A stretch of DNA of 63,629 bases, the filler included. It is 5 parts of 5 records of this genome, joined end to end, with 100 filler letters (N's around TTAATTAATTAA, not from the genome) between each part and the next. Parts side by side here need not be neighbours in the genome. Positions count along the whole stretch, not along the records: positions 14,834 to 42,795 come from SRR31156797_14378; 4 more parts are not named here. One strand, written 5' to 3'. Made by a program: the position numbers and the translations under genes. This document shows positions 1,026 to 30,871 of this stretch, in pieces (within the stretch, counting starts at the first letter, position 1; each line of letters starts with the position of its first letter). The notes beneath the pieces were generated by a model, which did not search any database, had not been told where the DNA came from, and saw only the letters and a program-made list of their open reading frames with translations.

Positions 1026-1351
1026 GATTTTGTGCCTTTAATATATTTATACCGTCTATTTAATTTTGTGCTATAGTACTGTATAAATATGGGGTTATAC
1101 AATATAACCTATTTCATATAAATTGATATTTTAATTAATGTTATTTGTTAAAATAAAAGAACATTTACAGTATTTACAAATCACTCTACAATTTAGTAAT
1201 GTGCCAAACATTAGTATTTAATTTCTCATTTTGGATAAAATTTGTTTTTAAATGAGATATACACATTTACCAATTTATTCGAATAATTTTAACTATTTCT
1301 CTTCAAAATTCCATTTTATAAAGAATTCATAAGTATATCAATTGATTAAGT

Positions 1352-2977
1352 TTAATTTTCAGAGAGTTTGTCAAAAAGTAAAAAACGGTCACGGTTTTGT
1401 TCTATTTCCTCCCTTGTATTTACATTAATATGCATAAATGGTGATGGTTGACCACCTTTCACAGTTGACCAGACTGGGAGACCAATTCCATTGGGATTAC
1501 CTGTCTTTATAAAATTAGCAAAATAAGCTTGCATAATTTCAGAGACTTTAAAATCTTCTGGTTGCCAATCAAAAACCCTATTCGAAGGCAGATTACCTAA
1601 AGCATACTCGATTTCAGCTGAGTGAACCGCTCCAAATGCTAATGGAGCTTTTTGTACTGTTGAGTCTTTTATTACTCCTCCAGCAAGACCAGCAACAACA
1701 TTCCCCATCTCTGCTCGTATAGCAGGGCGAGGACGTGAGTAATAATATCGATACACAGGGCTACCAACTGTTTTTGCATGCAAATCTGCCCATTTCCAAG
1801 TACAAAATCCATTAAAGTTATCAGATGCCAGATCTGTTGCTACTTTTTCTACTTCCTTATCGGAAGAAGGATTATATAATTTAAGAATCTCAGAAGCATT
1901 TTCCTTGTATGTATTTTGAACTGCATTAATAAAATTTTCCCTGGTTAACTCCTCTTGTCCCATTAAATATCTCAAACTCGATTCTTGTGAGTTCCACCCT
2001 ACTAACAAAGGAACATTTGCCTGTCTACCAGACTCATATATTACTTCAGGTTTTTGAGGAAAGAAATATCCATCAACTGTATATTTAAAAGAACCAACAG
2101 CTCTATTTGTTGTTAAATCCAATAATTTTGTTGCGGAAATTTCACGCATTTCTTTGATGGATTTTACTCCTGCAACCTTAGTAAATTCAAGACCTCTCTT
2201 TTCTGCTTCAGCAAACGGAATAGGCTCATGTCTTCTAAGAAAGGATCCACTTTCACCAATTGCCCCTGCGATAAGATTTTTAGATAATGGAGAAACCATT
2301 TGTGAAATTACAGATAAAGAACCAGCAGACTCGCCTGCTATAGTTACCCTATTTGGATCTCCACCAAAAGCAGCAATATTCTGGTTTATCCATTTTAAGG
2401 CTGCAGCCTGATCCAGCAGCCCATAGTTACCAGAAGCATTATGTGGTGACTCTTTTGTGAGTTCTGGATGTGCCATAAAACCAAAAAGACCGAGACGATA
2501 ATTAACTGTTACAGACACTATACCCTTACGAGCCATACTTTCGCCATCGTAGCGAGGCTCAGATCCATCACCAGCGATATAACCACCACCATAAAAGTAA
2601 ACTAATACTGGAAGTTTTTTATTTGATACTTTTAATGGTGCCCATACATTTAAATAAAGACAATCCTCACTCATTCCATCGGAGCGGAAATTCATATCAC
2701 CAAATACAGACAGCTGCATAGGGCGAGGTCCAAAATTATTGGCTTTGCGCGCACCTTCCCAATTAGTCATAGGTTGTGGTTCTTTCCATCTCAAATTACC
2801 CGTTGGAGGTGCTGCATAAGGAATTCCCTTAAAAGTTAGTATTCCTGAATCGTTAATACCTTCCAAAATACCGTTAACGGTTTCTACTTGTGGTAATTTA
2901 TTATTTTTGTTTGATTGCATACAGGCAGAAACTATTATAAGAGTAATTAATAATAAAAAAACAGAGTTTTTAATCAT
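1352..2977 (-). CDS. Carboxylesterase type B (para-nitrobenzyl esterase-like), predicted lipoprotein
   Basis: FKGIPYAAPP.G.LRW, SEDCLYLNVW, GESAG nucleophile elbow, HSAEI His motif. Start moved to ATG 2977 (MIKNS...VSAC lipobox); the ORF track starts at 3010. Confidence 0.9.
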   Translation of the reverse strand: MIKNSVFLLLITLIIVSACMQSNKNNKLPQVETVNGILEGINDSGILTFKGIPYAAPPTGNLRWKEPQPMTNWEGARKANNFGPRPMQLSVFGDMNFRSDGMSEDCLYLNVWAPLKVSNKKLPVLVYFYGGGYIAGDGSEPRYDGESMARKGIVSVTVNYRLGLFGFMAHPELTKESPHNASGNYGLLDQAAALKWINQNIAAFGGDPNRVTIAGESAGSLSVISQMVSPLSKNLIAGAIGESGSFLRRHEPIPFAEAEKRGLEFTKVAGVKSIKEMREISATKLLDLTTNRAVGSFKYTVDGYFFPQKPEVIYESGRQANVPLLVGWNSQESSLRYLMGQEELTRENFINAVQNTYKENASEILKLYNPSSDKEVEKVATDLASDNFNGFCTWKWADLHAKTVGSPVYRYYYSRPRPAIRAEMGNVVAGLAGGVIKDSTVQKAPLAFGAVHSAEIEYALGNLPSNRVFDWQPEDFKVSEIMQAYFANFIKTGNPNGIGLPVWSTVKGGQPSPFMHINVNTREEIEQNRDRFLLFDKLSEN

Positions 2978-3414
2978 GATATATATTTTATTGTAAATTT
3001 TAAACCACATACATAGTGGCGATTATAAATAAATAGACATAAACCATTTCATACATAAATATATTTTAGGTATTAAGTCTTGTTAATTTTTTGATGTTCT
3101 CCCTATATGATATGCATATCGATTATTGAAATGAGAACAAATGATAATATTGGAAATGAAGTCCTAACTATTATTATCACCACATAATCAATAAAGAAAA
3201 ATGCATCAACATTGATTTTGGTGAAGATAAAGTCAATGAATATAAAATATCAAAAAAGGTTAGAACGAATAGTTTAACAACTACGCATTAACTTACGACC
3301 GATTAACATTACTTTCAACAAATCTTTTCATATAATGAATACGATTCATCGTTCATTAAATCAAAGGTTGATTTTAATAAATAACCATATCCTTCACTCT
3401 GAATCAATAATTAA

Positions 3415-23345: not shown

Positions 23346-24392
23346 ATGGCTAAGAAAGACCAGCTAATTACGGGTGTCGATATTGGCTCCCACGCCATCA
23401 AAGTCTGCCAACTGCAGCAGACAGGGAAGGGATACAAACTTCTCTCCATAGGCAGCACCACATTGCCTCCGGGCGTAGTGGAAGATGGTGTTTTGCAGGA
23501 TCCCGATGTGGTAGGCAAAGCCATTGCAGCCTTATTTAAGAACTTGAAAATCAAAAACTCAAAAGTAGGCATATCCATCTCCGGCTATTCAGTTATCGTA
23601 AAAAAAATCAACCTTGAATACATGACTGACGAGGAATTATTGGAGTATATCGTAGCTGAAGCCGAACAGTATATTCCCTTTGATATTAATGAGGTATATC
23701 TCGACTTCCAAAAACTCCCCACCAGCAGTCAAGAAAATGACAGAAGTGATATAATGCTGGTTGCCGCGAAAAAAGAAGTGATTGACGACTACCTGCTTAT
23801 GCTCCAGGAACAAAAGCTCAAGCCTGTACTGGTCGACGTTGACGGTTTTGCTCTTGAAAACATCTGGGAGAAAATGTCAGGCAATGGTGAAAATATTGCA
23901 CTGGTTGATATTGGCGCCTCAAAAATGAACATTAATGTCATTGCTGATGGAGTAAGCGTCCTTGCTCGAGATATCGTTGTAGGCAGTAATCAACTTACAG
24001 ATCAGTTGGTAAATGCATTAGACGTCGATGAAGAAGAAGCGGAAAACATTAAACTGGGTATGGTTTCTGCAGGAGAAAACCAGAATAAAGTAGAAGAAAT
24101 TTTCATGCAAACCTGCACCCAATGGATACTGGAAATAAAAAAAGCTATTGATCTTTATATGGCAAATAACCCAGACAATCCTCTCAAATTGCTGGTACTC
24201 AGTGGGGGGGGGGCTAAAGTGAAAGGTCTATTGGATTATATCAAGCAGGAAACCGGGCTGGACGTTGTCTTGTTCAATCCGTTTGAAACGATGATAATTG
24301 ATGAGAAAAAAATCGACCGTCAATATCTTGACTCAATCGCTCCGGAAATGGCTATTGCCGCAGGGTTGGCCATCCGGGAAGCAGCCTTCTAA
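23346..24392 (+). CDS. pilM: Type IV pilus assembly protein PilM
   Basis: GVDIGSHAIK actin-like fold, EAEQYIPF.I.EVYLDF, MLVAAKKE, VDVDGFAL.N, LSGGGAK. Confidence 0.96.
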   Translation: MAKKDQLITGVDIGSHAIKVCQLQQTGKGYKLLSIGSTTLPPGVVEDGVLQDPDVVGKAIAALFKNLKIKNSKVGISISGYSVIVKKINLEYMTDEELLEYIVAEAEQYIPFDINEVYLDFQKLPTSSQENDRSDIMLVAAKKEVIDDYLLMLQEQKLKPVLVDVDGFALENIWEKMSGNGENIALVDIGASKMNINVIADGVSVLARDIVVGSNQLTDQLVNALDVDEEEAENIKLGMVSAGENQNKVEEIFMQTCTQWILEIKKAIDLYMANNPDNPLKLLVLSGGGAKVKGLLDYIKQETGLDVVLFNPFETMIIDEKKIDRQYLDSIAPEMAIAAGLAIREAAF

Positions 24393-24398
24393 GAAATT

Positions 24399-24971
24399 AT
24401 GATATATATAAATCTTTTACCTGTTAGGGAAATCAGGCGCAGAAACAAAGCTAAGAACCAAATCTTCACCTTAGCTGGTGCGTTCGTATTGCTTGTTGCC
24501 CTGCTCGCCATATTTGCAATTCTTCAGGGAAACACAATCACTGAGAGGAAGAATACCCTTGCAGACCTGAAAAAAGATAAGCAGCGCTATACCACCATCC
24601 TTAATAAGATTAAGCAGCTTGAAAAAGACAAACAGGTCTTGAAAAACCGAATCGCTGTCATCAAAAAACTCAAAAAGTCATCATCACTTACAGTGCATGC
24701 CCTTGATGAGGTGGCTAATCTTACCCCTTCCAAAAGGATGTGGTTGACCACACTGACTCAGAGCGGTTCAAGTATGAAAGTATCTGGAATGGCCTTGGAC
24801 AACAGGACTATAGCCAAATATATGGACGATTTGAAAACCTCTCCCTACATCAAAAACGTTCGCCTGACGAGTTCATCACTCAAAGGGTTTGCAGGGAGAA
24901 ACCTGAAGGCTTTTTCTATTTCTTGTTCCATTGCCGTTCCTGAAGATAAAAAAGAACCACAAACGAATTGA
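24399..24971 (+). CDS. pilN: Type IV pilus assembly protein PilN
   Basis: INLLP N-terminal PilM-binding motif, TM helix, coiled coil, MWLT.L. Confidence 0.94.
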   Translation: MIYINLLPVREIRRRNKAKNQIFTLAGAFVLLVALLAIFAILQGNTITERKNTLADLKKDKQRYTTILNKIKQLEKDKQVLKNRIAVIKKLKKSSSLTVHALDEVANLTPSKRMWLTTLTQSGSSMKVSGMALDNRTIAKYMDDLKTSPYIKNVRLTSSSLKGFAGRNLKAFSISCSIAVPEDKKEPQTN

Positions 24972-24986
24972 TCACAGGCACAAAAT

Positions 24987-25631
24987 ATGGCTGCTGGCAC
25001 TATTACAAACAAATTTGACACCTTTATCGACGAAAAATACAGTCCTCTTGATGTAAAGGTAAAAATTGCGATTGCAGTTTTAATACTGCTCATACCTGCT
25101 GCGCTCTGCTACTTCCTTGTGTTTCAGCCTAACAAGGAAGCGATTGCCAGACTTGACAACCAAATCGTCAAAGCACAGAAGGACTTGACCAAAGCTCGAA
25201 AAGCTGCGCAGAACCTGCCTAAGCATGAACAAGAACTGGCAGAGATTAAAAAAGAGTTTGAAGCAACGGCGGTTATATTGCCTAAAAGCCAGGAAATTCC
25301 CAACTTGTTGAGAAGTATATCAGACCGAGGGAAGAGTGCTGGTCTTGATTTTCTATCCTTTAAACCGGGTGCGGAAATTCCGAGGGATTTTTATGCGGAA
25401 ATTCCGGTCGATATCTCAACCAAAGGCCCCTACCACAATATGGGCTTCTTTCTCGATCAGGTAAGTAAACTGGAACGACTGGTAACAGTAAACAATATCA
25501 AAATGGGGTCGCCTAAAAAAGAAGGGTCGGAAATGCTTTTAAATTCGACCTGCAGACTTGTAACATACCGTTTCACCAACACCAAACTCCCTTCTGAAAA
25601 GAAGGGAAAAGGTAAAAAAAGAAAACGATAA
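24987..25631 (+). CDS. pilO: Type IV pilus assembly protein PilO
   Basis: TM plus coiled coil, LPKSQEIP.LL, FYAEIPV.I...GPYH..G.F...VSKL.RLV, TYRF. Confidence 0.95.
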   Translation: MAAGTITNKFDTFIDEKYSPLDVKVKIAIAVLILLIPAALCYFLVFQPNKEAIARLDNQIVKAQKDLTKARKAAQNLPKHEQELAEIKKEFEATAVILPKSQEIPNLLRSISDRGKSAGLDFLSFKPGAEIPRDFYAEIPVDISTKGPYHNMGFFLDQVSKLERLVTVNNIKMGSPKKEGSEMLLNSTCRLVTYRFTNTKLPSEKKGKGKKRKR

Positions 25632-25657: not shown

Positions 25658-26203
25658 ATGCTACTTAAAAAAAACAGCAATCCTTATTTCGCCTTTTCCA
25701 CATTGACGTTGGCGGCGGCCTTCAGCTTCATTATGCTGCAAGCACCCCCATCGTATGCGACTGCAGAGGTGGTCCAACCTTCGGTACCTCTTAGTCTGGA
25801 ACAAGACGCACCTGCCGGCGGCACGAATACCTTTGTCTATGAGCTGGAGGGGCGGTCTGACCCATTCATTCCCTTTATCACGCCTAAAGCCACGACTGCG
25901 GGGCTTCTGGACCCTAATGAAATTATAGATGAAGAAACAATTTTAACAGGGATGCAGCTGTTTGAACCAGGGCAGTTAAGGCTGGTTGCAGTGCTGGTAG
26001 CGAAGGGTGAACCAATGGCACTGGTCGAAGATGTTACCGGCAAGGGCTATATATTGCGTGAAGGTATTCCCATTGGCCGCCGTGGAGTGGTCGATGAAAT
26101 TTTTGCATCGGAAGTAAAAATTACTGAAACCGCTAAAACTCGAGCGGGCAAAGAGATTTTAAAAACGATTACAATGAAATTAAAAAAAGAGGGAGACGAA
26201 TAA
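25658..26203 (+). CDS. pilP: Type IV pilus assembly protein PilP
   Basis: Y...GRSDPF.P, QLRLVAV, ALVEDVTGKGYI...G..IG..G.V..I; operon position. Confidence 0.88.
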   Translation: MLLKKNSNPYFAFSTLTLAAAFSFIMLQAPPSYATAEVVQPSVPLSLEQDAPAGGTNTFVYELEGRSDPFIPFITPKATTAGLLDPNEIIDEETILTGMQLFEPGQLRLVAVLVAKGEPMALVEDVTGKGYILREGIPIGRRGVVDEIFASEVKITETAKTRAGKEILKTITMKLKKEGDE

Positions 26204-26205
26204 AC

Positions 26206-28080
26206 ATGTTTCACTTTTCTTCCCCATCCAGTTGGACAACGCGATTATCTGCAAGCACTAAGCTGGCACTCCTATGCGTTGTGAGCATGGGCCTTCTTGC
26301 CCTGACCACTGGCTCTGCTTTTTCGGCAGAAGATGACAAGGGCGCAAATAAGGTGGGCTCCTTAACTGTGACAGAGAAAGGTACCTCTCTTGAAATTAGA
26401 GTCAACAGTTCGGAAACTCCGACTTATACAGTATACGAACTGTTCAACCCACCCAGAATTGTGCTGGATATTGCCGAAACATCGCCTACACCCGAATTTG
26501 CACCACAGATTCCACCTGAATTTAACATTAAGCTTGCAACCAAACAACTCACAGATGTTTCGCCATCTTTGTTTCGTTTGGAATTTACGTTGCCGGAGTC
26601 TATGCCTTTTGAGACCTCTCTGGATGGAAATGATGTTATTCTGACCATCAGCAAAGGTGAATCTGTCGCCCCTGAGGCGACGCCGACGAAGATGCTTGAA
26701 GTTACTGATATTCAGGTGAAGACATCACCAGATCAAACCCGCATCAAGATACTGGCAAACAGTGAAATTACCAATTACACATATGATGTTATTGACAGTA
26801 AGGGTAGCACGCCAGCCAGAATGTACATTGATCTCAACACGATCACAGGGGACACACTATTACAGGAACAGATGGTTGGCACCTCTTTGTCACGCATTCG
26901 TGTTGCAAAGCGCGGATCGGGGCTACGGATAGTTTTCGACTCATCAACAAAAGACCTGTTCCCGTTTACTGTCCAGTCGGTTCCCAATGGCCTCGAAGTC
27001 ATCATTGAGGAGCCACAACAGGTTGATCAAATTTCTACACTTATTAAAGAAAAAACCACCATTGAAAGTCAGCTTCCTGAGGTAGATCCCCTCGAGACGC
27101 GACTTTCTCCCCAGGCAACTGAGCAACAACTCCAGGATGCATTTAATTTTTCCGGCTACAATAAAGAACGCATAACCGTAGATTTTTATAAAATCGACTT
27201 ACACAATGTATTCCGTCTCTTCCGCGAAGTAAGTGGTATCAATATAGTTGTTGACGGATCAGTATCAGGATCTTTGACGCTTGCTCTTGACGATGTGCCT
27301 TGGGACTTTGCTCTTGATATTATCCTTAATCTTAAAAACCTGACCAAAGAAGAACGTTTCAACACTTTGGTCATTCTGCCTAAAGATAAATCCTTTAACT
27401 GGGCCAAACAGGCAGAGAATAATATTTCTTTTGAAGCAGATATTGAAGTCGCCGAGCAAGAAGCACTCATTATTAAACAGCAGCAGAGCCTGCCGAAGGA
27501 AGTAATCGAAGCAAAGCAGCTTATCGCTCAGGGTAAAAAGGCTGAAAAAAGAGAGAATTTCGAGCTGGCAATCAGCCTGTATGAGCAAGCATTTGCCAAA
27601 TGGGCTGACAATGGGAAACTGGCCAATAGGATTGCATCCATCTATTTGGTTAGACTGCGACAAAATGCCAAAGCAGTCTTTTACGCAAAAAAAGCACTTG
27701 CTGTAGATCCAGATAATACGGCTGCTGCTCTTAATGTAGCCATTGGCTTGGCAAATATGCAAGAGCTGCAACAGGCAGTAGAATTTTTCGACCAAAGCAT
27801 CAGCGCTGAAAAACCTAGCGCAGAGGCATTGTTGAGTTATGCGGTGTTTAGCGAAGGCAAGAAAGAATATGAAAGTGCCCTTAAACTCCTCTCCCGATAC
27901 GACAAGATCTATGGTCAAAACTTAAATTCCATGATTGCGGTGGCCCGTGTCAACGACAAGCTCGGTAATCATGCTGTTGCCACAGAAAAATATCAGGCAA
28001 TCCTTTTGGCCGGATTTAGAATACCACCTGATCTTGCCAAGTATATAAAGGGCCGTATCGCTCTTAAACAGACAATGTAA
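26206..28080 (+). CDS. PilQ-like periplasmic protein: signal peptide, 2x AMIN, secretin N0 domain, TPR repeats (no secretin beta-barrel)
   Basis: AMIN motifs (LFNPPRIVLDI; TPARMYIDL); PilQ N0 signature (ITVDF..IDLHNVFRLF.EVSGINIVVD.SV.GSLTL.L.DVPWD.ALDIIL); helical TPR-like C-terminus (AISLYEQA, AVFYAKKALAVDPDN, AVEFFDQSI). Confidence 0.85.
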   Translation: MFHFSSPSSWTTRLSASTKLALLCVVSMGLLALTTGSAFSAEDDKGANKVGSLTVTEKGTSLEIRVNSSETPTYTVYELFNPPRIVLDIAETSPTPEFAPQIPPEFNIKLATKQLTDVSPSLFRLEFTLPESMPFETSLDGNDVILTISKGESVAPEATPTKMLEVTDIQVKTSPDQTRIKILANSEITNYTYDVIDSKGSTPARMYIDLNTITGDTLLQEQMVGTSLSRIRVAKRGSGLRIVFDSSTKDLFPFTVQSVPNGLEVIIEEPQQVDQISTLIKEKTTIESQLPEVDPLETRLSPQATEQQLQDAFNFSGYNKERITVDFYKIDLHNVFRLFREVSGINIVVDGSVSGSLTLALDDVPWDFALDIILNLKNLTKEERFNTLVILPKDKSFNWAKQAENNISFEADIEVAEQEALIIKQQQSLPKEVIEAKQLIAQGKKAEKRENFELAISLYEQAFAKWADNGKLANRIASIYLVRLRQNAKAVFYAKKALAVDPDNTAAALNVAIGLANMQELQQAVEFFDQSISAEKPSAEALLSYAVFSEGKKEYESALKLLSRYDKIYGQNLNSMIAVARVNDKLGNHAVATEKYQAILLAGFRIPPDLAKYIKGRIALKQTM

Positions 28081-28113
28081 ATGCGCTCTATACTGAATTT
28101 GAGGAAAAGCCAT

Positions 28114-29805
28114 ATGAAGTTAGCTAACTGTTCATTGCCACTGGTTCTCTCGCTCATGATCCTTGCATTATCGGCTTGTGCCGACAAGGATACCGCCGAG
28201 GAGAACCCACCTGCTCAGGAGACACCGACTGCAGCCCAAGAGGCGACTCCCGCACCCCCTCCAGAACCGGCACAATTACCTGTCAGATTTCAGCAACCCG
28301 GTTTCGTTACAGCAGATCTTGAAGCAGAAGAACAGCTGGAAGACCAGTCAGGGGAATATCAGCTGAAAGTCGGTGCTACCATACGCTCAACAGCAGGCCC
28401 GCAACCCTTATGGGATATTCTGAACCGCTTAGGTGCCCTTAAAGGCATGAGCGTGAGCTGGGCTAGTGATGTGGATCAGACCGTATTGGTTGACGTCAAC
28501 ATTGCGGCTGAGGATGACTTTTTCACAGCCATTGACAACTTATTGCGCCAGGTTGATTACTACAATGAAGTAGAAGGCAATACCATCATTGTCAAATACC
28601 GCGAAACAAAGAAATTTTTCATTGCTATCCCTAATATGAAAGGTACCTATACCACGACTACTGGTGGTAATTACCTTACAGATCGCGATGCCGCAACCGG
28701 TACGGAAGGCACTATCAAGATAACCAGTGATGAAAATGGTTTTGATGTTTGGGCCAATATTCGTGCTAACCTCGACTTGATCATGCAGCAGTGGACTACA
28801 GTAACCACAGAACCGGATGATCAACCAGCAGATGATGCTGATGGTGCAGGACCAGCAGAGGCGGATGCTGATGAAAACAGAGCGACCAGGCGGATGGCGA
28901 CTGGTGGTTCCTACTATACCGTTGACCAGTCTGTTGGTCTTATCACAGTTACAGCGCCAAGACCATTACTGGATAAAGTTGAACTCTACTTGACGACCTT
29001 GAAAGAAGAAATTTATCGTCAGGTCGTGATTGAAGCAAAAATCATCGAAGTCTACCTTGAGGATAATTCCAAGATTGGCCTGGACTGGAGTCTTGTCTTG
29101 AAAGACTTCGACATAACCGGAACTACCTTTTTCGGTACAGCAGGTACCGGCGGAGACGGCCAGGTGTATCCTTGGATTCCTGCTGAAGGTGACGCAGACT
29201 CTATAACCACCTTTATCAGTAAGATCACACTGAACCCTGCAAACTTTTCAGTCATGCTCAATGCCCTTAATGAACAGGGTGATGCAAATGTTCTTTCCAA
29301 CCCAAAACTAACGGTTTTAAACGGACAGCCTGCTCTTATCTCTGTGGGCAAAGATATTGCCTATATCAAAACCGTTTCCCAAAATATTGACTCAGGCAGT
29401 GGAAGCAACTTGACTACTGTTACCTATACTGCTGAAGTCGATAATGTTGTAGAAGGTGTAGCTCTCGGTGTGGTTGCATCCATTGTCAACGACGAAAAAG
29501 TAGTGCTCCATCTTACTCCGGTAACAACCAATCTTATAGATGATACTATCGAGTATAGAACGTTTGGTGACGGGCTTGAAGTCGGTCTTCCCAAGGTCGG
29601 TGTTCGTGAAATGTCTACCATGGTGGAAGTCGGTAACGGCGAAATGCTTGTTATTGGCGGCCTTATAGATGAAGTCGATAGTTCAGTGGGTAAATTTGCA
29701 CCTGTGGTTGGCGAAATACCCATCGTTAAATATCTCTTTGGTTACGAAGAAAAAATCAAAACCAAACGGGAATTGGTTATTTTGCTGACCCCCAAAATTA
29801 TATGA
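28114..29805 (+). CDS. Lipoprotein secretin, MshL/GspD-like
   Basis: Lipobox LSAC with start at ATG 28114 after a GAGG RBS (ORF track starts at 28081); QVVIEAKIIEV.L...SKIGLDW, VLSNPKLTVLNGQPA.ISVG, LVIGGLI, P.V.YLFG, RELVILLTPKII. Confidence 0.92.
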   Translation: MKLANCSLPLVLSLMILALSACADKDTAEENPPAQETPTAAQEATPAPPPEPAQLPVRFQQPGFVTADLEAEEQLEDQSGEYQLKVGATIRSTAGPQPLWDILNRLGALKGMSVSWASDVDQTVLVDVNIAAEDDFFTAIDNLLRQVDYYNEVEGNTIIVKYRETKKFFIAIPNMKGTYTTTTGGNYLTDRDAATGTEGTIKITSDENGFDVWANIRANLDLIMQQWTTVTTEPDDQPADDADGAGPAEADADENRATRRMATGGSYYTVDQSVGLITVTAPRPLLDKVELYLTTLKEEIYRQVVIEAKIIEVYLEDNSKIGLDWSLVLKDFDITGTTFFGTAGTGGDGQVYPWIPAEGDADSITTFISKITLNPANFSVMLNALNEQGDANVLSNPKLTVLNGQPALISVGKDIAYIKTVSQNIDSGSGSNLTTVTYTAEVDNVVEGVALGVVASIVNDEKVVLHLTPVTTNLIDDTIEYRTFGDGLEVGLPKVGVREMSTMVEVGNGEMLVIGGLIDEVDSSVGKFAPVVGEIPIVKYLFGYEEKIKTKRELVILLTPKII

Positions 29806-29851: not shown

Positions 29852-30871
29852 ATGAAGTACAGTCGCTATCTGCTGATTGGTTTACTTGCGCTGCTTCTCG
29901 GAGGATGCGGCACAACCGTTAAGGAATCGTTGAAGGTTCAACCGGTTGCCAAAAGTGATAAAGGTGCCGATAAAACCATAGTCATCCTTCCATTTGCGGA
30001 CTATTCATATGCTGACAACTTAGATTCCGCATACCGGCGAAATTTGTATGTCACAGAAAATTTGACAGACAACCTCGTCTCCAACAGCTTCCATCTACCG
30101 GTGCAGGAAGATGTTTTTCTTTACCTGGTTAATCAGAATATTATTAACGTGGTTGCCTACGAAAAGAAAAAAACCGGTATGCTTGAAGATGAGCTGGATG
30201 ACGAATGGTCTGCTGCAATGAAGGCCCAGATTCAACGCTATATTGACCTGACTAAAAGCAGGAACAATAATATGCCAGTGCTTGAGAGCCCTGGTACCCA
30301 TGGTCTGACCCAGCAGGAAGTTGTTAAAATTGGCCGCCATTTCTCTGCTGACTACATCGTACGTGGACGAATCATTCAGTACAAAGAGCGAGAGGATCCT
30401 TCTTGGGCCCCTTGGAAAAAAGGTGTGATCGGTTTTATCACCGGTGTAACCAACAAAATTGCTTTTGGTCAGGCCCGTTCAGACCAGTATGATCTCTGGG
30501 GTAACATGGCTGCAGGTGCCACTTATGGTGCTCTGATTGGTGATGGGGTTAACTGGCCATACACCGGCGAGGCTGATCAAACTATCTTCGGTATCTCCGG
30601 GGGTCAGATGGGCAATACCCTCTTTTGGGGAGCTGTAGGTGCAGGTCTTGGTAACATGGCACACAACACTGGAAAAATCCCACAGGCTGTTGTCCAACTT
30701 CGTGTCTGGGTACAGGATGCGTATAATGGCGATGTGCTCTGGACCAACAGAGTTGACGTGAAAGTGTCACCAGAATCGGTACTGGCCGATTACCAATATG
30801 ATGTTCTCTTTGAAGGAGCAACCGAAAAAGCAATTACCACCCTTATGGATAACTTCACCGCTACACTCTGA
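29852..30871 (+). CDS. Outer-membrane lipoprotein, CsgG/LpoB/TolB-N-like alpha/beta fold with glycine-zipper insertion
   Basis: Lipobox LGGC; IVILPFAD, IGRHFSADYIVRGRI, VQLRVWV.DA.NGDVLW; Gly-rich hydrophobic segments GATYGALIG and GAVGAGLG. Confidence 0.6.
   Translation: MKYSRYLLIGLLALLLGGCGTTVKESLKVQPVAKSDKGADKTIVILPFADYSYADNLDSAYRRNLYVTENLTDNLVSNSFHLPVQEDVFLYLVNQNIINVVAYEKKKTGMLEDELDDEWSAAMKAQIQRYIDLTKSRNNNMPVLESPGTHGLTQQEVVKIGRHFSADYIVRGRIIQYKEREDPSWAPWKKGVIGFITGVTNKIAFGQARSDQYDLWGNMAAGATYGALIGDGVNWPYTGEADQTIFGISGGQMGNTLFWGAVGAGLGNMAHNTGKIPQAVVQLRVWVQDAYNGDVLWTNRVDVKVSPESVLADYQYDVLFEGATEKAITTLMDNFTATL

Follow-up and report, generated by a model that had tools for sequence, protein, structure and literature searches.

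A pore-less PilQ-type AMIN–N0–TPR protein is encoded beside an MshL-family secretin in the Desulfobulbales type IV pilus operon

In the textbook type IVa pilus machine a single chain, PilQ, combines anchoring to the cell wall, docking of PilP and formation of the pore. The locus described here lies in a 63,629-nt stretch of DNA (the window; five joined records, filler included) and raises the question of how these jobs are divided when the gene in the pilQ position encodes no pore. Four genes precede it, on the plus strand like all features given below: pilM (23346–24392; 348 residues; TIGR01175, 266.6 bits against a cut-off of 133; PF11104), pilN (24399–24971; 190 residues; PF05137, 69 bits, above the Pfam cut-off), pilO (24987–25631; 214 residues; PF04350, 143.4 bits, above the Pfam cut-off) and a pilP-like gene (25658–26203; 181 residues), which PF04351 matches with 24.7 bits, slightly below its cut-off of 25.6, and whose product contains no Cys in the N-terminal signal region. 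PilM, PilN, PilO and PilP of a type IVa pilus machine are thus encoded in the operon, and PilB scores above the equivalog cut-off in all five related genomes (757–781 bits against 675.65).

The open reading frame at 26206–28080 runs from ATG to TAA as one frame without an internal stop and encodes 624 residues. We assigned its domains using Pfam, NCBIfam, PDB sequence searches, an AF2 model (mean pLDDT 78.5) and Foldseek. Residues 1–40 (26206–26325) form the signal peptide region, with a hydrophobic helix at residues 16–36 in the model; cleavage would probably occur after AFS, and no lipobox can be read in the sequence ahead of this predicted site. Two β-domains follow. The first (residues 48–149; 26347–26652; pLDDT about 84–92) is an AMIN domain, matched by PF11741 at residues 58–95 (27.2 bits; cut-off 20.5) and aligning with residues 33–151 of M. 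xanthus PilQ in the PDB sequence search. The second (residues 165–268; 26698–27009) is AMIN-like as judged by its hhalign match to the first (74.8% probability, E = 2.6e-5, 98 columns), with controls against N0 remaining below 1% probability.

Residues 322–392 (27169–27381) form an N0 domain of PilQ type, modeled as β-α-β-β-α-β-β. The STN family (PF07660) matches residues 345–393 with 27.5 bits, slightly below the cut-off of 28.4, and the NCBIfam PilQ model TIGR02515 covers residues 321–423 with only positions 2–104 of its 428, so that the whole-model score of 64.9 bits falls below the cut-off of 284.35. The closest relatives in the PDB are the N0 domains of PilQ from M. xanthus (3jc8, residues 469–552, E = 5e-21), Neisseria (4av2/4ar0) and P. 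aeruginosa (6ve2), with E-values ranging from 5e-21 to 8e-13. A linker (27382–27441), in which Trp399 and Phe409 are invariant and which is predicted to be disordered (pLDDT below 50 at residues 402–419), leads into a helical, probably MshN-like TPR domain (residues 413–623; 27442–28074). Several TPR families of Pfam match residues 441–600 of this domain, and the model places 12 helices there with pLDDT above 90 and nothing but helices after N0. Foldseek returns the PilQ chain of 3jc8 as the top match of the model, followed by TPR proteins. Pfam finds no match to Secretin (PF00263) anywhere in the 624 residues; the protein has no pore domain and is unable to form a pore. The original observation of a secretin-less AMIN–AMIN–N0–TPR chain in the pilQ position is borne out by Pfam, TIGR02515, PDB, AF2 and hhalign; as anticipated, Pfam recovers AMIN, STN and TPR and not Secretin, with the second AMIN added by hhalign.

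Across 32 homologues, mean pairwise identity is highest in N0 (82.6%), followed by the TPR domain (57.4%) and the AMINs (37–43%), and relatives carry zero, one or two AMINs. N0 plus TPR is the conserved core of the family, the AMINs are optional, and the pattern of conservation is that of strong purifying selection. The full-length N0–TPR frame is kept in hundreds of genomes, and the junction between N0 and the helical part is bridged by contigs of two other studies with no joint reported (X2 record 10, 27081–27479; X4 record 20, 27344–27689); a chimeric join or frameshift, which had been named as a possible refutation, is practically excluded. For the X1 contigs, too, no joint is reported; as X1 is possibly the source sample, it does not count as independent. 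PF00263 occurs in 0 of the 120 homologues listed, and a length-unrestricted search gave full N0–TPR matches only in proteins of up to 839 residues among the 150 proteins listed. The AMIN–N0–TPR gene is a real, conserved component of the Desulfobulbales type IV pilus operon.

The next gene (28114–29805) encodes a secretin of 563 residues counted from the Met at 28114; the frame itself opens at 28081, and a GAGGA motif sits 9 nt ahead of the 28114 ATG. The lipobox cysteine (LSAC; 28177–28179), Cys22, is invariant in 34 secretins. Counted from Met12 of the long frame, residues 85–170 (28366–28623) adopt an N0 fold in the AF2 model, which VIA-align superposes on the N0 domain of GspD (4jtm_B; Z 8.8, rmsd 2.1, 73 residues aligned) and on the PilQ N0 of 3jc8 (Z 7.5). 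A sequence-profile comparison of this domain with the N0 of the 624-residue protein gives an hhalign probability of 1%, so the secretin N0 is assigned by its fold and not by its sequence. An N3-like domain (residues 267–316; 28912–29061) was recognized from the secondary structure of the AF2 model, the TIGR02519 match beginning at residue 279 of the long frame, and the secretin domain proper (29218–29799) is given by the model and by PF00263 (113.2 bits).

TIGR02519, the MshL equivalog, scores this secretin at 260.8 bits, above its cut-off of 250.2, while the PilQ and GspD models reach 103.3 and 139.3 bits. In phmmer comparisons of the C-terminal part of the pore, secretins linked to N0–TPR genes score 167–610 bits, other MshL-type secretins 118–180, GspD 40–56 and PilQ 35–72. 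A quick, unrooted tree, with SH-aLRT values as its support measure, gathers the N0–TPR-linked secretins into one clade (99) that lies beside other MshL-type secretins (93) and apart from PilQ plus GspD (96). The neighbor, which had been taken for an unrelated secretin, is in fact a complete member of the MshL family with its own N0-fold domain and lipid anchor. Its gene follows pilMNOP and the N0–TPR gene and does not stand in the MSHA order mshI-J-K-L-M-N-E-G; no AAA_22 (MshM-like) gene was found in the pilMNOP operon of the window. An MSHA-type gene context is present at a separate locus, L117. The chain ends directly behind the secretin domain and lacks the sort of S-domain tail that TadD binds; a secretin that is lipidated and has no such tail does not obviously need classical pilotin-style targeting. 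Complex prediction for the secretin with the N0–TPR part of the 624-residue protein gave a median score of 0.34, with one control at 0.43, and weighs neither way on binding.

Sequence comparison lends moderate support to a resemblance between the TPR domain and the MshN-like TPR proteins whose genes lie close to those of MshL-type secretins. A profile of the TPR domain alone aligns colinearly, from position 9 to 175 of its 195, with the TPR proteins of MshL loci (56–63 bits). Genome-wide, the top TPR match is the product of a gene 4–10 kb from an MshL-type secretin in four of five genomes, with scores of 88.4 versus 44.3, 72.8 versus 55.7, 67.3 versus 32.0 and 61.9 versus 45.5 bits; in genome G288 the best match is not its MshN. 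The reciprocal best match is the N0–TPR protein in all five, by a margin of less than 1 bit in two. Aligned by hhalign with the MshN of a locus in full MSHA order, the TPR domain gives 63% probability over 177 columns, up to a common C-terminal PDL..Y/F motif; when the N0+TPR alignment (A2) is used instead, the match shrinks to the final 40 columns and 13%. Similarity between TPR domains is promiscuous. The hallmarks of MshN, an MS[LI][LI]..L N-terminus with a membrane helix and a locus with MshM (AAA_22), MshE and MshG, are not found for the 624-residue protein. An AMIN-like middle region considered for the MshN of L117 and L118 was dropped at hhalign probabilities of 0.3% and 0.06%.

Of 151 genomes sampled across Desulfobulbales, 138 carry the AMIN–N0–TPR gene, which makes it the lineage-wide trait that had been suspected. 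The order pilM-N-O-P, N0–TPR, secretin recurs throughout 80 related loci wherever the contig extends far enough: a secretin match lies directly downstream of the N0–TPR gene in 77 (the remaining three stop at a contig edge), and pilP lies upstream in 72 (the remaining eight begin at one). Twenty more distant loci (31–55% identity) all share this order, with pilP giving no tblastn match in two. In a sample of 401 genomes of the phylum, 28 contain a full N0+TPR match; 287 others give matches of much lower score (best E = 3.8e-24 or worse); among these, the rows listed cover the N0 part only, mostly in frames of 600–1200 residues. We read these N0-only matches, 10 of which were checked, as canonical PilQ. 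All 28 N0+TPR genomes have exactly one N0 match, so no second PilQ-type N0 is seen there, and the N0–TPR gene and canonical PilQ are complementary in distribution. The absence of a canonical pilQ was judged in relatives of the window's genome. The secretins detected in five related genomes comprise the neighboring MshL-type one, a GspD-type one (TIGR02517, 500–535 bits in the three genomes scanned) and, in two genomes, extras: three in G002 and one in G005. A single one of these four extras was typed, and it is not PilQ.

The fusion of a PilQ-type head to a TPR domain, encoded beside a complete MshL-type pore, suggests that this pilus machine uses a hybrid two-protein module. We favor, with a probability of roughly 0.6, the reading that the N0–TPR protein is the coupling half of such an outer-membrane module in a type IVa pilus machine. 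The 624-residue protein would be exported by Sec to the periplasm, where its head (zero to two AMINs plus the PilQ-type N0) would keep two jobs of canonical PilQ, namely to bind peptidoglycan and to dock PilMNOP at its PilP end. The TPR tail, probably related to MshN, would bind the adjacent MshL-type lipoprotein secretin while the pore assembles and perhaps as a permanent partner, and the outcome would be a pore of MSHA ancestry wired to the inner-membrane platform of a type IVa pilus. A role as hybrid adaptor or secretin recruiter fits all the data, and it is from these that we infer the mechanism, that is, the N0–PilP, AMIN–peptidoglycan and TPR–secretin contacts and their stoichiometry. 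As for origin, we tentatively suggest that an MSHA-type liposecretin and its MshN-type TPR partner may have been imported together, with the TPR domain becoming covalently joined to the AMIN/N0 head left from a displaced PilQ; Desulfobulbales and allied Desulfobacterota would then have a conduit of two proteins in which one N0 layer is stacked on another.

The N0–TPR protein could instead be a transient assembly factor like PilF, TadD or FimV, a reading that we consider unlikely; it would gather the secretin at peptidoglycan landmarks, promote its multimerization and leave, and PilP would dock on the N0 of the secretin. The two N0 domains bear on this in opposite directions. The pore carries an N0 fold of its own, so PilP could dock there and leave the N0 of the N0–TPR protein another role; the PilQ-type N0, however, is the most conserved part of its chain, which is hard to explain without a fixed partner such as PilP, and a second PilQ-type N0 is absent from the 28 N0+TPR genomes. 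The apparent MshN-like character of the TPR domain agrees with a transient factor, MshN being reported as a TPR protein homologous to TadD (PMC6668835), and TadD is reported to be required for assembly of the RcpA secretin and to hold the C-terminus of the secretin in its groove. AMINs, too, are described as localization modules (PMC2572700). Unlike PilF and TadD, the N0–TPR protein has no lipid anchor.

Less probable still is a wall anchor for PilMNOP that acts independently of the pore. The TPR domain would in that case bind itself or another partner, such as the downstream lipoprotein, minor pilins or a PilY1-type protein, and its link to the secretin would be genomic only. The lipoprotein (29852–30871; 339 residues; LLGGC lipobox) belongs to no known family, with no Pfam match and no PDB sequence match at E up to 1. 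Its conservation behind the secretin, where tblastn finds it in 65 of the 80 loci (the remaining 15 stop within or shortly past the secretin gene), speaks for this reading, as do the invariant residues and predicted disorder of the post-N0 linker, which are like those of a partner-binding motif. In most of the 20 more distant loci, however, the lipoprotein is absent or has moved, while the N0–TPR and secretin genes are adjacent in all 20, and the TPR domain and the secretin both appear to trace to MSHA-type loci. In the Atlas, the lipoprotein falls into unnamed clusters with two weak leads, LpoB in 12% of members and CsgG at a score of 0.89.

The phrase “PilQ cut in half”, under which the gene was originally presented, would imply simple gene fission, in which a canonical pilQ broke in two, leaving the downstream gene as a diverged C-terminal part. 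We regard this as very improbable. The gene's place behind pilP and its AMIN and N0 domains of PilQ type are in line with it, but the secretin encoded downstream scores above the MshL equivalog cut-off (260.8 bits, against 103.3 for PilQ), has its own lipobox and N0 fold, and groups with MshL-type secretins and not with the PilQ of its own phylum; as a complete MshL-family lipoprotein, it is not the missing half of PilQ, and the approximately 210 TPR residues encoded upstream come from no PilQ half. That the gene is a pseudogene, or the product of a chimeric assembly or a frameshift error, has no supporting point that we could find and is a negligible prospect given the frame kept in hundreds of genomes, the junction bridged by contigs of other studies and the signature of purifying selection.

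Under the preferred reading of a two-protein module, Desulfobulbales, which are abundant sediment sulfur bacteria, and a second related lineage divide the jobs of PilQ over two proteins, and the pore used here comes from a secretin family other than PilQ. If the adaptor model is true, the locus is a natural experiment on which PilQ functions need covalent linkage, and it informs both secretin swapping among type IV filament systems and the role of MshN-type TPR proteins. If the joint MSHA origin suggested above holds, the PilP-docking interface and the pore would be separable, exchangeable modules, and TPR domains of the MshN/TadD class would be dedicated secretin binders able to work without a lipid anchor. 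The JGI annotation names the N0–TPR protein ‘PilQ’; with this label on a pore-less protein, pilus inventories may name the wrong gene as the secretin.

The domain architecture is already known: AMIN + STN + TPR was listed by de Souza et al. in 2008 (PMC2572700), where, in the available part of the paper, AMIN–TPR proteins are predicted to be outer-membrane transport proteins with a TPR shell. The same part gives the listing without gene context, an MshL-type secretin, a link to MshN or AMIN-less forms. Our search of open main texts returned no paper on the N0–TPR protein, none on a type IVa pilus operon with an MshL-type secretin, none joining cable bacteria, pilQ and type IV pili, and no experimental account of MshN.

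Among known systems, PilF/PilW/Tgl and TadD are likewise TPR proteins that act on secretins, and the 624-residue protein shows weak sequence matches to PilW and PilF, its TIGR02521 (PilF/PilW) score of 27.5 bits falling below the cut-off of 154. Unlike it, these are outer-membrane lipoproteins without AMIN or N0, and in contrast to pilotin systems the secretin is here lipidated itself and has no C-terminal tail past the secretin domain. FimV, a peptidoglycan-linked secretin assembly and scaffolding protein, follows a logic of wall binding and secretin contact. GspA/GspB (ExeA/ExeB, OutB; for OutB, PMC9239104) are alike in that logic, pairing a wall-binding module with a secretin-contacting module. 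The domains of FimV and GspA/GspB (LysM, Pfam PG-binding, HR) are nevertheless unrelated to those described here, and the likeness is one of function, with no homology claimed.

The TPR domain of MshN can be aligned colinearly with that of the 624-residue protein up to a C-terminal PDL..Y/F..R motif present in both, and in both cases the gene adjoins or sits near that of an MshL-type secretin. The MshN-like proteins examined, however, lack an N0 and begin with MS[LI][LI]..[ILM]L and a membrane helix, where the 624-residue protein instead carries a signal peptide followed by AMINs and an N0 of PilQ type. With PilQ (3jc8, 4av2/4ar0, 6ve2) it shares the N-terminal AMINs followed by an N0 of the same sequence family and the gene position right behind pilMNOP; unlike PilQ, it carries about 210 residues of TPR in place of N1/N3 and the secretin domain.

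The gene at 26206-28080 (+) is an uninterrupted frame with an ATG start and a TAA stop, encoding a 624-residue N0-TPR protein. Pfam places an AMIN domain at residues 58-95, STN/N0 at residues 345-393 (27.5 bits, slightly below the cut-off of 28.4) and several TPR families at residues 441-600, and detects no Secretin domain in the protein. The NCBIfam PilQ model covers residues 321-423 with its initial 104 of 428 positions only, scoring 64.9 bits (cut-off 284). In a PDB sequence search, the N0 stretch lies nearest the PilQ N0 domains of M. xanthus, Neisseria, P. aeruginosa and V. cholerae (E 5e-21 to 8e-13), and residues 33-151 of M. xanthus PilQ align with the first AMIN domain. An AlphaFold2 model computed with 32 homologues (mean pLDDT 78.5, pTM 0.38, values at which the interdomain placement is unreliable) comprises a hydrophobic N-terminal helix (residues 16-36), two beta domains (residues 48-149 and 165-268) followed by a disordered linker, a beta-alpha-beta-beta-alpha-beta-beta N0 domain (residues 322-392) followed by a short disordered linker, and twelve helices (residues 413-623) with pLDDT >90. 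For this model Foldseek ranks the 3jc8 PilQ chain first among PDB matches, with TPR proteins, CTPR, OGT and MamA among them, coming next. As judged by profile comparison, the second beta domain is AMIN-like: it matches the first with 74.8% probability (E 2.6e-5, 98 columns), and in the control comparison each AMIN domain scores <1% against N0. Open frame, Pfam, NCBIfam, PDB search, model and Foldseek thus bear out the original prediction of an AMIN-AMIN-N0-TPR chain without a secretin channel. The linker between N0 and the TPR helices (27382-27495, residues 393-430) is predicted to be disordered and has invariant W399, F409, E419, I423 and Q425; this pattern resembles a motif that becomes ordered upon binding a partner. 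An antisense ORF within the gene (27265-27918 (-), 217 aa, TTG start) is very likely spurious, since the sense frame is strongly conserved.

The N0-TPR gene is not an artefact. A chimeric join or frameshift had been named as a concern and none was found: the Logan contigs of one sequencing run, X1, possibly the source sample, contain no joint in the gene, and the N0-to-helix junction is spanned by contigs from two other studies (X2 record 10, 27081-27479; X4 record 20, 27344-27689). A word-indexed search in which 8000 candidates were scored returned 1392 homologous proteins at E <= 0.001. The 120 homologues listed combine STN with AMIN and/or TPR families, and PF00263 occurs in none of these 120. 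In their sources, homologues are named 'AMIN domain-containing protein', 'secretin and TonB N-terminal domain-containing protein' or, at JGI, 'type IV pilus assembly protein PilQ'. A library search over all protein lengths gave 126 clusters at E <= 1e-30; full N0-TPR matches reach at most 839 aa among the 150 proteins listed, so no fusion of N0-TPR to a pore is seen among them. In some metagenome-assembled genomes (MAGs) the secretin or N0-TPR gene contains an in-frame stop or is matched in part or in separate pieces (loci L074, 10533-12287, and L109; genomes G454, G464, G482 and G536); either sequencing errors or genuine decay may lie behind this.

With one genome scanned per species, 360 loci with a gene for a relative emerged. 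Of the 80 best, nearly all are labelled Desulfobulbales or Desulfobulbaceae/Desulfocapsaceae, and Desulfogranum marinum DSM 2058 is the nearest named isolate among them (88% identity). Two homologous proteins, P0085 and P0118 (48-65% identity), and one contig, L010 (57%), bear the labels Prolixibacteraceae, Chlorobium or Oleiphilaceae; all three are MAG-derived, with longest contigs of 5.4, 16.6 and 2.3 kb, and we suspect that they are probably mis-binned Desulfobulbales DNA, not transfers. In a sample of the order of D. marinum, N0+TPR is matched at E <= 1e-40 in 138 of 151 genomes, nearly always at full length and in single copy. Across an even sample of the phylum, with at most 5 candidates scored per genome, 315 of 401 genomes match at E <= 1e-10. 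Both N0 and TPR are covered in 28 of the 315 (13 at E <= 1e-116, 15 at 7.5e-54 to 9.3e-85); the other 287 match far more weakly (best E 3.8e-24 or worse) and, among the matches listed, over the N0 part only, in frames mostly of 600-1200 aa. We read these N0-only matches as canonical PilQ; a C-terminal secretin region is present in all ten such proteins fetched. Each of the 28 N0+TPR genomes has exactly one match, and hence no second PilQ-type N0 is seen in them. At 20 phylum-sample loci the N0-TPR proteins span 355-700 aa with 0, 1 or 2 AMIN domains, a variation that marks N0+TPR as the conserved core. Homologues of an AMIN-less member are named for Dissulfuribacter, Dissulfurimicrobium, Dissulfuribacterales, unclassified Thermodesulfobacteriota or 'Deltaproteobacteria'.

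Gaps of 2-26 nt separate pilM, pilN, pilO, the pilP-like gene and the N0-TPR gene; on the 3' side follow the secretin gene, a gene for a 339-aa lipoprotein and convergent secB. When seven proteins of the window were compared with the 80 loci by tblastn, the secretin match lay directly downstream of the N0-TPR gene in 77 (the remaining 3 stop at a contig edge), pilP upstream in 72 (in the remaining 8 the N0-TPR gene begins <250 nt from a contig edge) and the lipoprotein in 65 (the remaining 15 stop in or shortly past the secretin gene). The order is also kept, as pilM, pilN, pilO, (pilP), N0-TPR, secretin, in all 20 loci fetched of the 28 in the phylum sample, where pilP has no tblastn match in two and the secretin match of one (L109) is partial. 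The PilP-like protein (25658-26203) scores slightly under its Pfam cut-off (24.7 vs 25.6) and, as its N-terminal signal stretch lacks cysteine, is not a lipoprotein; PilP of Pseudomonas and Neisseria are lipoproteins. The lipoprotein (29852-30871) belongs to no known family, with weak LpoB/CsgG-like leads. It is conserved 3' of the secretin in Desulfobulbales loci and absent or moved in more distant ones, lying between pilP and the N0-TPR gene in one (L107).

The neighbouring secretin (28114-29805) scores 260.8 bits on the NCBI equivalog for MshL (cut-off 250.2), 139.3 on GspD and 103.3 on PilQ. It had been called unrelated, and the gene before it half of a divided PilQ; it proves to be an MshL-type secretin and not the part that PilQ lacks here. 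An LSAC lipobox is present, and its Cys is invariant in 34 sequences. The first ATG of the ORF, at 28081, abuts the upstream stop (taaATG); the true start is probably 28114, because GAGGA lies 9 nt upstream and a typical 22-residue lipoprotein signal follows. A structural model of modest quality (pLDDT 61.8) consists of a disordered linker, a beta-alpha-beta-beta-alpha-beta-beta domain (residues 85-170 from Met 28114), a small domain, an N3-like domain and the secretin domain. In VIA-align, residues 81-164 match N0/STN folds: ETEC GspD N0 (4jtm_B, Z 8.8, rmsd 2.1, 73 aligned), LspD, DotD, the FecA/PupA signalling domains and 3jc8 PilQ N0 (Z 7.5). The whole-chain top match is BfpB of a T4bP system (9u5s_A, Z 11.7, rmsd 12.5, 331 aligned). 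As modelled, the pore has an N0-fold domain of its own, and a sequence-profile search detects no similarity between it and the adjacent PilQ-type N0.

With the C-terminal 301 residues of this secretin as phmmer query, secretins adjoining N0-TPR genes score 167-610 bits, other MshL-type secretins of the phylum 118-180, GspD-type secretins 40-56 and canonical PilQ of the phylum 35-72. In a quick IQ-TREE phylogeny (61 rows, SH-aLRT support only, midpoint root), all 33 N0-TPR-linked secretins and one Desulfosediminicola paralogue form one clade (SH-aLRT 99), placed beside ten other MshL-type secretins (SH-aLRT 93) and separate from the PilQ+GspD clade (SH-aLRT 96). MshL-type secretins occur at E <= 1e-50 in 146 of the 401 phylum genomes (46 above the cut-off); these include 27 of the 28 N0-TPR genomes and 119 with no N0-TPR gene. 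Neither a pilMNOP operon nor an N0-TPR gene was found by tblastn at ten of these other MshL loci, two of which gave weak PilM-like matches. These sequence comparisons agree with one event in which an MshL-type pore took the place of the PilQ pore. A split of PilQ does not fit the phmmer groups, the secretin tree or the distribution of MshL-type secretins.

A separate canonical pilQ was sought in five related genomes, all of which encode PilB above the equivalog cut-off (757-781 vs 675.65 bits) and thus have a T4aP system. Their Secretin-domain matches comprise the MshL-type gene, a 745-773 aa secretin and four extras, three in G002 (one a 103-aa frame only) and one in G005. The 745-773 aa secretin is GspD-type in all three loci scanned (L081, L083 and L086; TIGR02517, 500-535 bits). 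The L083 and L081 proteins have a short TPR stretch at the C-terminus (about residues 645-735), where L086 gives a weak match; to our knowledge this is unusual for GspD. In L083 (genome G001) this secretin (1087-3336) adjoins a GspE/PilB-like ATPase (1-1035) with an MshE-type c-di-GMP-binding N-terminal motif. Two of the four extras were typed: a 492-aa frame in G002 is above no family cut-off, and a second secretin of G002 falls inside the N0-TPR-linked clade. Among the typed frames no AMIN-N0-N1-secretin PilQ was found. The G002 secretin inside that clade, of Desulfosediminicola flagellatus (G002:C1:2700296-2700823, locus L093, 556 aa), lies far from the pilMNOP operon, and the 103-aa fragment about 24 kb from it.

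The origin of the TPR domain was approached through MSHA-like loci. L117 encodes, in order, PilM-like, PilN-like and PilO/T2SSM-like proteins, a small ORF, an MshL-type secretin, an AAA_22 ATPase, a 451-aa TPR protein, T2SSE+MshEN and T2SSF; by its predicted products this is the full MSHA gene order. The V. cholerae order is mshI-J-K-L-M-N-E-G, from which we take the 451-aa protein to be MshN. A second locus, L119, has an MshL-type secretin, T2SSE+MshEN, T2SSF, AAA_22 and a TPR ORF. The TPR proteins of L117, L118, L119, L123 and L124 begin with MS[LI][LI]..[ILM]L and a hydrophobic stretch, and a TPR-only HMM matches those of L119, L123 and L124 colinearly (positions 9-175 of 195, 56-63 bits). 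When five genomes were searched with 23 aligned TPR-only sequences, the top match in four was the TPR gene lying at a distance of 4-10 kb from that for the MshL-type secretin (margins 88.4 vs 44.3, 72.8 vs 55.7, 67.3 vs 32.0 and 61.9 vs 45.5 bits); in the fifth, the L117 genome (G288), the top match (36.9 bits) lies elsewhere than the MshN gene. In the reverse direction, a search with the L124 TPR region ranks the N0-TPR protein first in all five genomes, with margins of 14.8, 9.1, 7.7, 0.8 and 0.7 bits. With hhalign, the TPR alignment matches the MshN pair of L117 and L118 with 63% probability (E 6.9e-5, 177 columns), closing with a C-terminal motif common to both, ...G..rPD[LV]..[YF][ILV]..R[IL]; the N0+TPR alignment matches over its last 40 columns only (13%). 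Because TPR similarity is notoriously unspecific, we regard a relationship between this TPR domain and MshN-like proteins as moderately supported, and unproven.

Mean pairwise identity among 32 homologues is highest in N0 (82.6%) and TPR (57.4%), followed by the post-N0 linker (54.4%), AMIN2 (42.7%) and AMIN1 (37.3%); N0 and TPR are thus the most constrained parts, as expected with fixed protein partners. N0 is the docking site of the PilP/GspC HR domain in PilP-PilQ of Neisseria and Pseudomonas and in GspC-GspD (3oss, which is also among the VIA-align matches). The N0-TPR protein is a real, conserved and uncharacterised component, of a variant T4aP outer-membrane module, and we infer for it an adaptor role in which: (i) the AMIN/N0 head would retain the T4aP-specific contacts to PilP and the wall, and (ii) the MshN-like TPR tail would hold the MshL-type pore. 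This reading is weakened by the pore having its own N0, being itself lipidated and having no tail past the secretin domain. Our full-text literature search returned no account of the N0-TPR protein or of an MshL-type secretin encoded in a pilMNOP operon. The AMIN+STN+TPR architecture was catalogued in 2008 but is unstudied; de Souza et al., in the accessible portion of their paper, predict AMIN-TPR proteins to be outer-membrane transport proteins with a TPR shell, give no gene context for them there, and regard AMIN as a module that directs proteins to septal or polar peptidoglycan (PMC2572700). For the tail, the nearest known counterparts are MshN, the MSH homologue of TadD according to PMC6668835, and TadD itself, which PMC10499894 describes as a PilF-like TPR pilotin that holds the final residues of RcpA, a secretin, in its groove and is required for secretin assembly.
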